From Deltaproteobacteria bacterium (GTDB taxonomy: Bacteria > Desulfobacterota > Desulfobacteria > Desulfobacterales > JAUWMJ01), in contig DAOWEJ010000103.1 of NCBI GenBank assembly GCA_030638575.1, positions 5,417 to 69,416 on the forward strand: 64,000 nucleotides of DNA, given 5' to 3'. This document shows positions 10,063-58,268 of the stretch, one piece after another. The position numbers and the translations under genes were made by a program. The notes under the pieces were generated by a model, which was not told where the DNA came from, ran no database searches, and saw nothing but the letters and a program-made list of their open reading frames with translations. Position 1 is the first letter of the stretch; every line of letters begins with the position of its first letter.

Positions 10063-11217
10063 ATGTCCGGCATTAGAAACGTATTAATGATGTTCTTTCT
10101 TTTAGGAGGGATGCTGTTGGGCTTGCCTTTTATAGGCATTATGCTGGCCGGATATCAGATTGCCAAATATTTTGATTTTCCTCCTAAAACTCAGTATGTG
10201 AGTCATGCACCTTTTTCGTGGATTGCTTTTACGGCACTCAGTCTTTTTGTTCTCGCTACGTTTGTTCCTATAATAATTAAAGGATTCAGGAGAGTGAAAC
10301 TTGTAAGAGACGGCTCAGTGACTAAATATTTTTTTCCATGGTGGGGGTGGGTTGGAGTTTTTACCGGAGCTGTTGCCTGGACATTTGCATGGACCCGTTT
10401 TCCATGGTTTGCCCAATTCCAGCCGCACACTTTTTTCCCATTGTGGTTTTCTTTTATCCTGGTAGTAAATGCGCTGTCATATCGGAAATCCGGGTATTGC
10501 ATGATAATCAATCGACCGGTATATTTCCTTTTGCTTTTCCCTGTAAGTGCCACGTTCTGGTGGTTCTTTGAATATTTAAACAGATTTGTTCAAAACTGGC
10601 ATTATGTGGGCGCTACTTTTGGCCCCTGGGAATATTTTTGGTATGCAACCCTTTCATTTTCAACTGTTCTTCCTGCGGTTTTAGGAGTTCGGGATCTTCT
10701 TCTCAACGCTTCATGGCTTGAAAAGGGTTTTGGAAATTTTATGCCTATCGAAGGATTTCAGTCTAAATTTCCGACCTTAACAGTCCTTGTACTGTCAGGG
10801 ATCGGACTCGTAGGGATCGGGGTTTGGCCTGACTATCTTTTTCTTCTCCTCTGGATTTCTCCTTTGCTTATCATCGTTTCAGTTATGTCTTTGTTCGGAG
10901 AAAGTAGCGTTCTGTCCGGCATTAAAAGGGGTGACTGGCGTGTTGTTATATCTTCATCACTGGCAGCATTTGTATGCGGATTCTTCTGGGAGATGTGGAA
11001 TTTTTATAGTCTGGCTAAATGGGTATACAGTGTTCCGTTTGTTCACCGATTCCAAATTTTTGAGATGCCGATACTTGGATATGCAGGATATTTCCCTTTT
11101 GGGTTGGAGTGTGCTGTAATTGGCGGGCTGCTTGAAGGGATAACAAAATCAAAGATTGACGGTCTCGTAAAAAGTCTCCCGCTTCAGTGCAGCGGGACGT
11201 TATGCTGCATTTCGTAA
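10063..11217 (+). CDS. Polytopic membrane protein of unknown function; last ~20 codons lie inside MITE B1
   Basis: About 10 hydrophobic segments rich in W/F (FWWFFEYLNRFVQNWHY). I recognised no family. The ORF runs 60 nt into repeat B1 before its stop. Confidence 0.6.
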   Translation: MSGIRNVLMMFFLLGGMLLGLPFIGIMLAGYQIAKYFDFPPKTQYVSHAPFSWIAFTALSLFVLATFVPIIIKGFRRVKLVRDGSVTKYFFPWWGWVGVFTGAVAWTFAWTRFPWFAQFQPHTFFPLWFSFILVVNALSYRKSGYCMIINRPVYFLLLFPVSATFWWFFEYLNRFVQNWHYVGATFGPWEYFWYATLSFSTVLPAVLGVRDLLLNASWLEKGFGNFMPIEGFQSKFPTLTVLVLSGIGLVGIGVWPDYLFLLLWISPLLIIVSVMSLFGESSVLSGIKRGDWRVVISSSLAAFVCGFFWEMWNFYSLAKWVYSVPFVHRFQIFEMPILGYAGYFPFGLECAVIGGLLEGITKSKIDGLVKSLPLQCSGTLCCIS

Positions 11218-17879: not shown

Positions 17880-18071
17880 TTTTTTTCAATTAAACCACGG
17901 GCTATGCCCGAGCGACCCTAAAAAGTTTTACCGTTCCGGCGAGAATAAATATACTCAATAGTATCAAAAAGAGAAAGAACAATATTTTTGATTCCCTCTC
18001 CTAATAGCATGGTCGTAAAATTAAGAAATAAAATGTTTATGATAAGAGAATATTGAACGGCAGAGTAAAGC

Positions 18072-18098
18072 GTTTTTTGAACATCGAACATCGAACGT
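18072..18098 (-). terminator. Coordinates entered in error; the intended HNH-gene terminator is listed as the next feature
   Basis: This range falls inside repeat D1, not on the terminator hairpin. The minus-strand stem ACCACCCG-tagaa-CGGGTGGT plus TTTTAT was mis-indexed here. Correct coordinates are 18271-18298. Confidence 0.1.
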
Positions 18099-18197
18099 TG
18101 AACATCGAATGGTGAAATCGCTTCGCTCCGCCGGTTTATAAATTGGCAGAATACCTTATTCAAAATTCGACGTTGGACGTTCGATGTTCGACGTTCA
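18077..18197. repeat. Family D heptad-arm hairpin, copy D1 (empty)
   Basis: Left arm TTGAACATCGAACATCGAACGTTGAACATCGAA and right arm TTCGACGTTGGACGTTCGATGTTCGACGTTCA are imperfect complements built from 7-nt units. The centre is 56 bp. Confidence 0.7.
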
Positions 18198-18270
18198 TGA
18201 CGGCTACGTCCTTGATATTGGATTGTAATCTGCAGGAATAGCGATGCTTTTAGACCCCTTCGAGGGGTCT

Positions 18271-18298
18271 TCATAAAACCACCCGTTCTACGGGTGGT
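18271..18298 (-). terminator. Intrinsic terminator downstream of the HNH gene
   Basis: Minus strand: ACCACCCG-TAGAA-CGGGTGGT (18298-18278) followed by TTTTATGA. A second hairpin, GACCCCTCGAAGGGGTC, follows. Confidence 0.7.
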
Positions 18299-18341
18299 AG
18301 ATGATTTTTTATCAAAAGGCCAAAATATTGTTACTATACAC

Positions 18342-18638
18342 CTAAACTTTAATCTTGTCTTTTAAGTATTCATCCCATTCCATGGGAAGGAGTTGCTTTT
18401 TTCTTGTGTTGCATTCTTTGCAGGCAGGGACAACATTACCCTTTATGCTCCGGCCCCCGCGTGCCACCGGAACTATATGGTCCATAGTTAGTTCTTTTGG
18501 GGGTGTTGGGCGTCCGCAGTAATGGCACACGCCTTTTGCAAGGCGTCGTTTCCACCACTGGGACTTTCTTAGTTCCCTTGCTTTGTGGCGTTCCCTTTTT
18601 ATATCCGCCTCATCCGGATCAAATGCAAAAGGTTTCAT
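18342..18638 (-). CDS. Small HNH endonuclease-domain protein
   Basis: CHYCG...DHIVPVARGG...NVVPACKECNTRK is an HNH/zinc-finger core; 98 aa. Confidence 0.85.
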   Translation of the reverse strand: MKPFAFDPDEADIKRERHKARELRKSQWWKRRLAKGVCHYCGRPTPPKELTMDHIVPVARGGRSIKGNVVPACKECNTRKKQLLPMEWDEYLKDKIKV

Positions 18639-22364: not shown

Positions 22365-22407
22365 GATTTGGTTCTCCTTTTTTTGAATTTTTCCCGGTTG
22401 AATATTT

Positions 22408-22602
22408 GATGGTTTCGTAAAAAGTCAGATTTAGACGGTTTCGTAAAAAGTTCAAATTCCCCCGCTAAAAAGCAACGGGATAAAAAGGCGTGTCCCGCTA
22501 AAGCGGGATAATCACAAGAAGTACTTATCGTACGTTGAATGATTGCGAAATGCAGCACAACGTCCCGCTGCACTGAAGCGGGAGACTTTTTACGAGATCG
22601 TC
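22408..22602 (-). mobile_element. MITE-like repeat family B, copy B2
   Basis: GATGGTTTCGTAAAAAGTC...GACTTTTTACGAGATCGTC, inverted relative to B1. Flanking direct repeat AATATTT (22401-22407 and 22603-22609). Confidence 0.85.
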
Positions 22603-22675
22603 AATATTTGCCTGGCTTGTTACACTGCTTTTAATTGTTATGCAAGAATTTATGAACTGGAAATACAGGTGAAAT

Positions 22676-24462: not shown

Positions 24463-24570
24463 TTTTATTTTGAAATTGGCTCTTGATTATTTATTTGGCC
24501 CTTAACAACTTCATATCGACATCTTGTTGCCGATCTCAGCCAGCATGTTGTTTTTACGTTGCAAGATTAT

Positions 24571-24658
24571 GTTACGAGTTACGAGTTGCGTGTTACGAAT
24601 CATAAAAAAGGAAACCATCCTATTTAAGACCCGTAACCCGTAACGCGAAACCCGCAAC
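24571..24658. repeat. Family D heptad-arm hairpin, copy D2 (empty)
   Basis: GTTACGAGTTACGAGTTGCGTGTTACGA ... CCGTAACCCGTAACGCGAAACCCGCAAC. The arms have 7-nt periodicity and the centre is 31 bp. Confidence 0.6.
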
Positions 24659-24829
24659 AGGGTACATGGACCCAGCAATTCTCGTTATTCATTGCTTTGA
24701 AAGAGCCCCATTTTTTATCACGTTGCTTTGGAAAATGCGTAGCTCTCAACAGGCCCAATGAACAGTAGATTTTAAAACAAGAAAAAGAAGATGTGTTTTG
24801 GTAGCAAATCCTGGTAATGGAGAAAGAGC

Positions 24830-26008: not shown

Positions 26009-26053
26009 TTCTCTTTTAATCCGCCCTACCTTGCAGGAACCTTGGTTGTAACC

Positions 26054-26126
26054 GTTCACGGGTTCTGGGTTCCGGGTTCAACTAAAAAAAGATAACCCTG
26101 AACAGCGAACTCTGAACCTGTGAACC
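26054..26126. repeat. Family D heptad-arm hairpin, copy D3 (empty)
   Basis: GTTCACGGGTTCTGGGTTCCGGGTTCA ... CCCTGAACAGCGAACTCTGAACCTGTGAACC, with a 14-bp A-rich centre. Confidence 0.6.
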
Positions 26127-26137
26127 CCTATCCTTAT

Positions 26138-57969: not shown

Positions 57970-57981
57970 CAAATTTTTTAA

Positions 57982-58256
57982 CTACTCAGGTTCACAGTTC
58001 AAGGGTTCACGGTTCAAGGTTGAAAAGAGATGAAGATTGAACGATTTGAAGACATTGAGGCTTGGCAACTGGCGCGCGAGTTGACACAAAAAGTGTACAG
58101 ACTGACGAAGAGTACATATCTTCCGGCGAATTTAAAGATACATATGAGCTGGCCAGACGAACCCGTGCTGTTGTTCGTGAATTCATCAACTATCTCAAAA
58201 AATATGAAGAGCACAAAGCAACTAACCGTGAACCGTGAACCCTGAACCTGAGTAGT
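57982..58256. mobile_element. Family D heptad-arm hairpin, copy D4 (occupied by a gene remnant)
   Basis: ACTACTCAGGTTCACAGTTCAAGGGTTCACGGTTCAAGG ... AACCGTGAACCGTGAACCCTGAACCTGAGTAGT. The outermost 10 nt are perfectly complementary. Confidence 0.75.
58030..58242 (+). pseudogene. Decayed four-helix-bundle protein gene (23S rRNA intervening-sequence protein family)
   Basis: MKIERFEDIEAWQLARELTQKVYRLT matches the family N-terminus. The family-like C-terminus EYISSGEFKDTYELARRTRAVVREFINYLKKYEE is in the -1 frame. The middle ~50 aa are missing. Confidence 0.7.
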
Positions 58257-58268
58257 TGCCAAACTTGA

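Follow-up and report, generated by a model that had tools for sequence, protein, structure and literature searches.

Four hairpins, termed loci A to D, lie between protein-coding ORFs of the window, the 64-kb stretch of DNA analysed here (C57:5417-69416 of G000, a MAG of 2.31 Mb in 124 contigs that is 76% complete), and three of them separate convergent genes. One of the four encloses the remains of a gene and three are empty, raising the question of whether filled and empty hairpins are forms of one element and, if so, whether the gene entered a ready-made hairpin or was lost from it. The evidence presented below makes it probable that loci A-D are copies of small selfish cassettes, resembling both the intervening sequences (IVS) of 23S rRNA and MITEs, in which a four-helix-bundle (4HB) gene lies between inverted heptad arrays.

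A repeat search identified inverted arms at 18078-18116 / 18159-18197 in locus A (39 nt, 85% complementary), 24570-24606 / 24623-24659 in locus B (37 nt, 76% complementary), 26054-26080 / 26099-26125 in locus C (27 nt, 78% complementary) and 57970-58021 / 58224-58267 in locus D (27-35 nt, 80-85% complementary). The inverted arms of tandem 7-nt units that had been claimed for the four loci from the sequence alone were thus found at all of them, each arm comprising three to five units of 7-8 nt (GAACATC/GAACGTT, GTTACGA/GTTGCGT and GTTCACG/GTTCAAG). Periodicity and complementarity are also kept between families, as that reading had proposed, although not by one family drifting from locus to locus: the loci belong to three arm families, one of them shared by C and D, each multicopy and each with gene-bearing members of its own. 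The three gene-less elements are delimited as follows.

18072-18198, no strand assigned: hairpin A, gene-less, 127 nt, GAACATC/GAACGTY family (from arms, copies and fold).
24512-24659, no strand assigned: hairpin B, gene-less, GTTACGA/GTTGCGT family, with a left extension of ~58 nt (from arms, copies and fold).
26046-26128, plus strand: hairpin C, a gene-less derivative of a GTAACCGTTCACGGGTTC-type cassette (aligned to the gene-bearing copies L144, L145 and L148).

The left extension of hairpin B (24512-24570) is common to its copies and contains a short, perfectly palindromic stretch (consensus ATCGACAA-TTTG-TTGTCGAT); the extension makes this element asymmetric. RNA folding on the plus strand gave z-scores of -7.1 for A (18072-18198), -7.6 for B, -5.0 for C and -5.9 for D, and shuffled sequences never folded as well (0/200). 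The window hairpins display arms of 27-39 nt and loops of 18-63 nt. None of the four presented a T-run or scored as terminator-like by the criterion of a short G+C-rich stem followed by a T-run, and no Rfam family matched anywhere in the window.

Locus D comprises three parts.

57981-58021, plus strand: left end of cassette D, with the outer inverted repeat ACTACTCAGG (57981-57990, preceded by TA) followed by about four units GGTTCAC/GTTCAAG (from the repeat and its copies).
58030-58229, plus strand: remnant of a TIGR02436/PF05635 4HB gene, matched to an intact paralogue, with the breakpoint at about 58103/58104.
58224-58256, plus strand: right end of cassette D, AACCGTG AACCGTG AACCCTG AACC and then the outer repeat CCTGAGTAGT (from the repeat and alignment).

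The loop of locus D aligns with the paralogue at G000:C8:24918-25304, with identities of 95% over nt 1-82 and 91% over nt 259-374. Positions 58030-58103 correspond to nt 1-74 of the paralogous ORF, and the remainder corresponds to nt 259-384 in a different frame. The internal deletion and the frameshift previously described for this remnant are therefore both present, not as two lesions but as one: a single 184-nt deletion, with ACGAAG microhomology at the junction, that shifts the frame. On its own the remnant is sub-threshold, ORFs within 58030-58245 reaching 16-20 bits in a PF05635 profile search with a cut-off of 33.8 and 13-20 bits over the TIGR02436/PF05635 searches as a whole, while the intact C8 paralogue (128 aa) scores 94.2 bits and the C95, C94b and L079 proteins 88-114 bits against TIGR02436 (cut-off 24). 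The DNA identity of 91-95% on either side of the deletion thus marks locus D as a family member by descent and a pseudogene, in agreement with the earlier proposal that it alone of the four carries cargo and that this cargo is a remnant of the protein family of 23S rRNA intervening sequences. The closest solved relative of the C8 paralogue is XCC0516 (PDB 2GSC, E = 6e-11), and the gene is flanked by two co-oriented ORFs, a putative Obg-like GTPase and a glutamate-5-kinase as read off the translations. The gene of cassette D is tightly packed: its start codon lies ~9 nt past the left arm and the original stop codon lies within the right arm. The number of units can differ between the left and right arms of one cassette.

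The three empty hairpins are gene-less derivatives of such cassettes. Hairpin C and a further copy at C109:10858 align with the gene-bearing L144, L145 and L148, with full identity over the initial ~20 nt of the left arm, and the 18-nt loop of hairpin C consists of the last ~16 nt of the 4HB ORF. The arm family of hairpin A encloses an intact 123-aa gene in G001 (L079, 88 bits for TIGR02436), and that of hairpin B encloses intact genes at G000:C94:771-1157 and in G001 (L075). Hairpins A, B and C are each present in several copies in G000 with conserved loops; hairpin A has at least 8 copies in G000 and roughly 15-20 or more matches in each congener, mostly 85-93% identical compared with 74-84% for flanking genes. 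The loss of the gene can be followed in the TTGAAAy family, whose hairpin loops, compared with the intact G001 copy L077, present at least seven distinct internal-deletion junctions (62/244, 54/272, 86/377, 91/374, 60/405, 54/408, and 59/401 with filler, 59/401 occurring three times). These copies, located at different genomic sites, form a series from a near-complete gene down to the arms alone. Repeated gene loss, one of the two histories offered by the sequence-only reading, is thus borne out by the TTGAAAy series, the 184-nt deletion at locus D and the ORF end in the loop of hairpin C. That occupied and empty hairpins belong together, as the same reading assumed, is supported by the ORF ends in the loops and by the gene-bearing members that share their arm families.

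Comparison with three congeners, G001, G002 and G003, reveals what is gained or lost at a site. At the site of locus D all three congeners have convergent genes 17-26 nt apart, with neither arms nor gene. G002 and G003 lack locus C, their convergent genes being 6-30 nt apart, and G001 holds unrelated sequence there. Loci A and B are missing from the orthologous sites of all three. The families of loci A-D nevertheless occur elsewhere in these genomes. In a wider survey the joined 250-nt flanks of 22 further hairpins were searched against the congeners, and at 8 of the 17 informative loci the coordinates indicated contiguous flanks in at least one congener; six of these further loci were aligned, of which five are clean absences and one retains a short solo array. 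Sites are therefore polymorphic for presence or absence, a comparison that had been suggested for these loci, at all four window loci and at 8 of 17 further ones. Other sites are filled in all genomes or decaying, and at C95:19620 the left arm is kept while the gene present in G001 has been replaced. At nine aligned loci (the four of the window and five further) the congeners lack arms and loop together, which argues that the hairpin is the inserted, mobile unit, with the arms as its ends, and not a pre-existing dock.

The spacer between two convergent genes at 17880-18360 of the window is a nest of several repeats that includes hairpin A; its flanking genes are 18 nt apart in G002 and separated by 441 and 366 nt of other sequence in G001 and G003, respectively. 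A cassette of G002 (L062, on C157) contains a ~150-nt unrelated repeat, and at the orthologous G000:C23:18696-18919 this repeat stands alone, arms and gene both missing. C64:1427 was considered as an orthologue of L079 decayed in situ and was rejected, since similarity stops ~20-40 nt beyond the arms, as for another copy of the element.

The joint absence of arms and content bears directly on the foremost rival explanation, in which hairpins exist beforehand and a 4HB gene with one arm enters or leaves by recombination within heptad arrays, as at an integron-like dock. In favour of a dock, at G000:C15:11365 G000, G001 and G003 have only a small palindrome of TTGATTG-type units and G002 has the order arm-gene-arm-loop-arm', with a ~20-nt direct repeat around the arm and gene. 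This is the expected product of a circle integrating into the left arm, and, as G001 seems to be the most divergent of the genomes, parsimony favours a single gain over at least two losses. However, deletion between the same direct repeats yields the same product in every lineage, so that parallel loss is equally easy, and the site is ambiguous, as it would fit both integration into an existing array and parallel deletion between direct repeats. Some orthologous sites in congeners keep a solo array or one arm, as at C27:3683, where a short solo array is retained; arrays can thus outlive, or predate, the hairpin. Against a dock stand the nine loci lacking arms and content jointly, and the ORF ends that empty loops keep at many different junctions, which point to decay in place and not to clean excision. 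A dock is thus unlikely, and a cassette that enters and leaves hairpin sites, the other history previously proposed, does not hold as a general rule.

In the cassette reading preferred here, a full cassette holds one TIGR02436/PF05635 gene packed exactly between inverted arrays of three to five tandem 7-8 nt units, and what comes or goes at a site is the whole unit, arms and content. It lands in the short spacer immediately behind a gene, which the gene of the cassette matches in orientation, so that the latter is probably transcribed by read-through. Internal deletions, at locus D at a short microhomology, then remove the gene and leave arms with a shrinking loop, and the gene-less forms are maintained as MITE-like families of several copies. 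No recognisable transposase is encoded by the cassette, so that movement may depend on a function supplied in trans.

The ends of the elements were inspected with this in mind. The terminus of cassette D is also found in copies C93, C101, C47, C84 and C96, in G025 and across many phyla, and D-type copies are bounded TA-ACTACTCAGG...CCTGAGTAGT-TA. The same ACTACTCAGG terminus bounds a ~163-nt GGCTGAA MITE family, with about 20 termini in G000. Cassette D and its kin might accordingly be passengers of a TA-targeting, IS630/mariner-like MITE whose transposase recognises ACTACTCAGG, the heptads and the 4HB gene being merely internal, and both the TA-bounded ends and the terminus shared with the GGCTGAA family favour such an origin. 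It is nevertheless improbable: the ACTACTCAGG-type terminus is confined to the D subtype, and families A and B, together with most C8 relatives and every XCC0516 relative, keep their heptad arms without it; the right-hand TA is TG at locus D itself; and no matching transposase was found, a single PF13358 (IS630-type) gene being present in five genomes, in G001, without D-type termini. No transposase was found in or beside the cassettes, in which the 4HB gene is the sole parental ORF. TA flanks that could represent a target-site duplication are restricted to D-type copies, none is visible at A-C, and the aligned empty sites display no convincing target duplication. The gene-less hairpins resemble MITEs in being small, non-coding and multicopy, with inverted ends, and present or absent at orthologous sites; they do not derive by deletion from a transposase-encoding element, as their deletion-related parents encode the 4HB protein only. 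REP/BIME elements are palindromes of 20-40 bp with a GTAG or CGTC head, tied to a RAYT transposase; by eye, no conserved tetranucleotide head of this type was identified in families A-C.

Several other small repeats were encountered. At G000:C106:1360-1620 a GGCTGAA-type MITE with ends GTAACTACTC...GAGTAGTTA lies within the loop of an AGCTsAy hairpin, and the nested structure is entirely missing at the orthologous site in G001. The window also contains, at 22405-22610, a multicopy element of ~200 nt with many matches of ~70-93% identity in all three congeners, which has no relation to the heptad hairpins and probably corresponds to the MITE family B of an earlier note. A segment of ~30 nt, AGGCTTCGCCTTCGGCTACGCCCGGCAAGC, occurs 14 times, at G000:C11:10346-10378 and 10816-10846 and 12 other places, nearly always within heptad or octad arms of several families, and is mirrored in both arms of the C11 cassette; it looks like a tiny insert targeted to arm units. 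The mirrored 33-nt insertion at C11 was considered as proof of copying from arm to arm and was discarded, since with 14 recurrences two targeted insertions fit equally well.

A genome-wide census places the window hairpins in a larger population. G000 contains 262 period-7/8 arrays compared with 22-32 (about 28) in third-order Markov simulations, and 64 of them have a complementary arm at most 900 nt downstream, compared with 1 in a random-window control. Arrays and hairpins comprise about a dozen unit (arm) families, the four largest being GTTCAnG/GGnTCAAG (50 arrays), TTGAAAy (28), AGCTsAy (26) and GTTrCGn (19), and exactly these four have gene-bearing copies in G000. No gene-bearing members of the TTTTArG, GGCTGAA and AAGkCACw arm families were found in the genomes searched. 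PF05635 has 17 matches in G000, with the ORF intact in four or five, and inspection of the flanks identified inverted periodic arms around nearly all of them, the unit differing with the gene subfamily. A flanking inverted-repeat score of at least 17 was reached at 11 of 16 testable matches, all intact ones included; among 3000 random 310-nt windows, 0.1-1% reached this score and 1/3000 was also periodic. The association is likewise present in the congeners and in G025. To the question of whether 4HB genes always sit between heptad arms, the intact genes give a uniform answer: every one in G000 is armed, and hence none of the unarmed intact genes that would speak against the association was found there. 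The four intact genes carry four different arm families.

An octad-armed (GGGTCAAGG) 4HB subfamily has at least 8 copies, all decayed (G000:C57:4156-4380, ~1 kb before the start of the window, and on C29, C39, C11, C85, C75, C19 and C23), and is embedded in a longer repeat whose outer ends, GGATCATCTCCCGATTAGTTGTAGTTAATTAAGG ... CTCCAACTAAATTGGAGAAGAACC, are conserved.

Among the long repeats of bacteria heptamers rank first, and the arrays might be ordinary simple-sequence repeats made by slippage that occur beside 4HB genes by coincidence or draw such genes in, with no relation between the empty hairpins and the genes. Many genomes are rich in heptanucleotide repeats, for which an origin by polymerase slippage has been proposed (PMC4679880); moreover, a partner arm within 900 nt is lacking for about half of the 262 arrays, and unit number is unequal between arms of one cassette. 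Against this, the association of gene and arms is far beyond chance (1/3000 controls) and extends across phyla, the loops contain ORF remnants, copies have outer ends and loops in common and not just units, and the biggest array families are the gene-bearing ones. Slippage by itself therefore appears largely refuted, and we regard it as highly improbable.

Of the hairpins of G000, 35 lie between co-directional genes, 10 between convergent and 9 between divergent ones, with no significant preference compared with a naive expectation (p = 0.09). In contrast, the gene upstream of the 4HB gene is co-oriented in 27 of 33 cassettes (p = 3e-4), usually tens of bases away. Only the orientation of the cargo gene is thus biased, not hairpin position overall. 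No convincing promoter stood out for the 4HB genes, so that, with a co-oriented gene upstream, their expression by read-through is likely. An origin of the empty hairpins as transcription terminators or as mRNA stabilisers of REP type, without any historical tie to the cassette, is scarcely credible, even though three of the four in the window separate convergent genes and long 3'-end stems can stabilise mRNA, since none is terminator-like or has a T-run, arms (27-39 nt) and loops (18-63 nt) are long, congeners lack them at orthologous sites, hairpins genome-wide occur in all three gene arrangements and hairpin C aligns to gene-bearing cassettes; this is refuted as an origin, and the hairpins may have a secondary mRNA-stabilising role. 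The unrelated terminators that the sequence-only reading had named as its own counter-case were thus not found.

Arm mismatches on the sense strand were divided almost equally between G-U (42) and A-C (38; p = 0.74), without an RNA-specific signal, and transversion-type mismatches were commoner (109). As no G-U preference is observed, nothing here demands a role at the RNA level. Slippage and template switching or gene conversion are established mechanisms, and from the absence of G-U bias and the differing unit numbers of paired arms we infer that complementarity and unit uniformity are kept at the DNA level, by slippage in the arrays and by template switching or gene conversion between inverted arms.

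The cassettes have spread across bacterial families and phyla. Copies of cassette D in G025, a member of another family within the order, are 84-86% identical to it, with the adjacent gene at 71%. Relatives of the C8-type protein reach 70-89% identity in records assigned to more than 12 phyla; some of these records are MAG bins, and individual taxonomic labels may be wrong. The labels (L103-L182) include Thermotogae, Nitrospirota, Chloroflexota, Verrucomicrobiota, Acidobacteriota and Bacteroidota, and identities of 70-89% are far above the levels of housekeeping genes between phyla. GGTTCAnG arms flank 46 of 70 C8 relatives by a strict test and most by eye, and arms built from a wide variety of units flank 61 of 72 XCC0516 relatives from many phyla. 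In four Xanthomonas species the XCC0516 relatives are flanked exactly by GGGAATCGGGAGTGGAGAATCGGGAATCGG and its complement, which is the published GGGAATC repeat. Arm units are constant within a protein subfamily across phyla and differ between subfamilies.

Among elements already described, the ORF-bearing IVS of 23S rRNA comes closest. In Coxiella burnetii the IVS, located in helix 45 of the 23S rRNA and encoding S23p, has a 28-bp stem with two to three GACAGAT heptamers, and RNase III cuts at the first repeat (PMC4990558). The cassettes resemble the ORF-bearing IVS of Coxiella and Leptospira in protein family, in the long terminal stem and in the tandem heptamers of that stem (PMC4990558), their terminal inverted repeats tightly enclosing an S23p-family ORF. 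The ORF of IVS is often decaying, and a selfish, possibly once-mobile nature has been proposed for them (PMC4990558), a likeness that extends to the cassettes described here. Unlike IVS, these elements lie between protein-coding genes, none of loci A-D being in a 23S rRNA helix, and they are multicopy, with about a dozen arm families per genome, gene-less derivatives and presence/absence at orthologous sites. Cleavage by RNase III is demonstrated for IVS; by analogy, the arms of the cassettes may form a long RNA stem that would be cut by the same enzyme. On that view, insertion into rRNA would be just one of the destinations of an element with a far broader distribution.

Correia elements of Neisseria are bacterial MITEs. 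Like them, the gene-less hairpins are small, non-coding, multicopy and site-polymorphic, with inverted ends and an origin by internal deletion from a longer parent. In contrast to them, the parent encodes a helical bundle of ~120 aa and no transposase, the ends are short tandem-unit arrays and not a unique terminal repeat, and a clear target duplication was not seen. The 4HB protein also belongs to the same four-helix-bundle superfamily as Avd, the accessory protein of diversity-generating retroelements (PDB 4DWL), but its gene is alone inside the hairpin, with neither a reverse transcriptase nor a template or variable repeat in the vicinity.

Dispersed heptamer repeats have been described in Xanthomonas (GGGAATC, 70-75 inverted pairs per genome; PMC4692102), in Geobacter metallireducens (4-5 x heptanucleotide elements; PMC2700814) and in Beggiatoaceae (TAACTGA) and cyanobacteria (PMC4679880). 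They share with the arms described above the tandem 7-nt units (typically about four), the intergenic and often transcribed position and the frequent convergent pairs able to form stem-loops. The papers treat the repeats as G-quadruplex or regulatory motifs, whereas here they are tied to a cargo gene and its loss. The text searched of the three papers (PMC4692102, PMC2700814 and PMC4679880) does not name the gene family, the Xanthomonas paper, in the part covered, reports no mobile-element link for GGGAATC (PMC4692102), and no paper joining heptamer repeats to the 4HB gene family was found in the literature searched.

The cassette reading can be carried further. Each 4HB protein could be a sequence-specific partner, on DNA or RNA, of its own heptad arrays, perhaps with one unit per oligomer subunit, such that a cassette and the gene-less hairpins of the same family would form a transposase-less pair of autonomous and non-autonomous elements, with dispersed heptamers as progeny and the rRNA IVS as one landing site. 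This extension is speculative and on balance doubtful; the four arm families of the four intact genes, the gene-bearing nature of the largest array families and the constancy of units within protein subfamilies are consistent with it and do not test it.

These observations join two puzzles, the origin of ORF-bearing 23S IVS and the abundance of heptamer tandem repeats in bacteria. The same arm families occur in G000 with an intact gene, a broken gene or no gene, which ties the repeats to one gene family. To this the locus contributes a deletion series and the gene-less derivatives themselves, presence/absence at multiple sites in a single genus, a bias in orientation, a G-U test with negative outcome and the link to Xanthomonas. 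Xanthomonas, in which the crystallised XCC0516 (2GSC) is encoded between GGGAATC repeats, offers a cultivable and tractable system. For annotation, such hairpins should by default be taken neither as terminators nor as regulatory motifs. If the partnership between 4HB proteins and their arrays were true, the dispersed heptamers long known from Xanthomonas, cyanobacteria, Geobacter and other bacteria would descend from cassettes.
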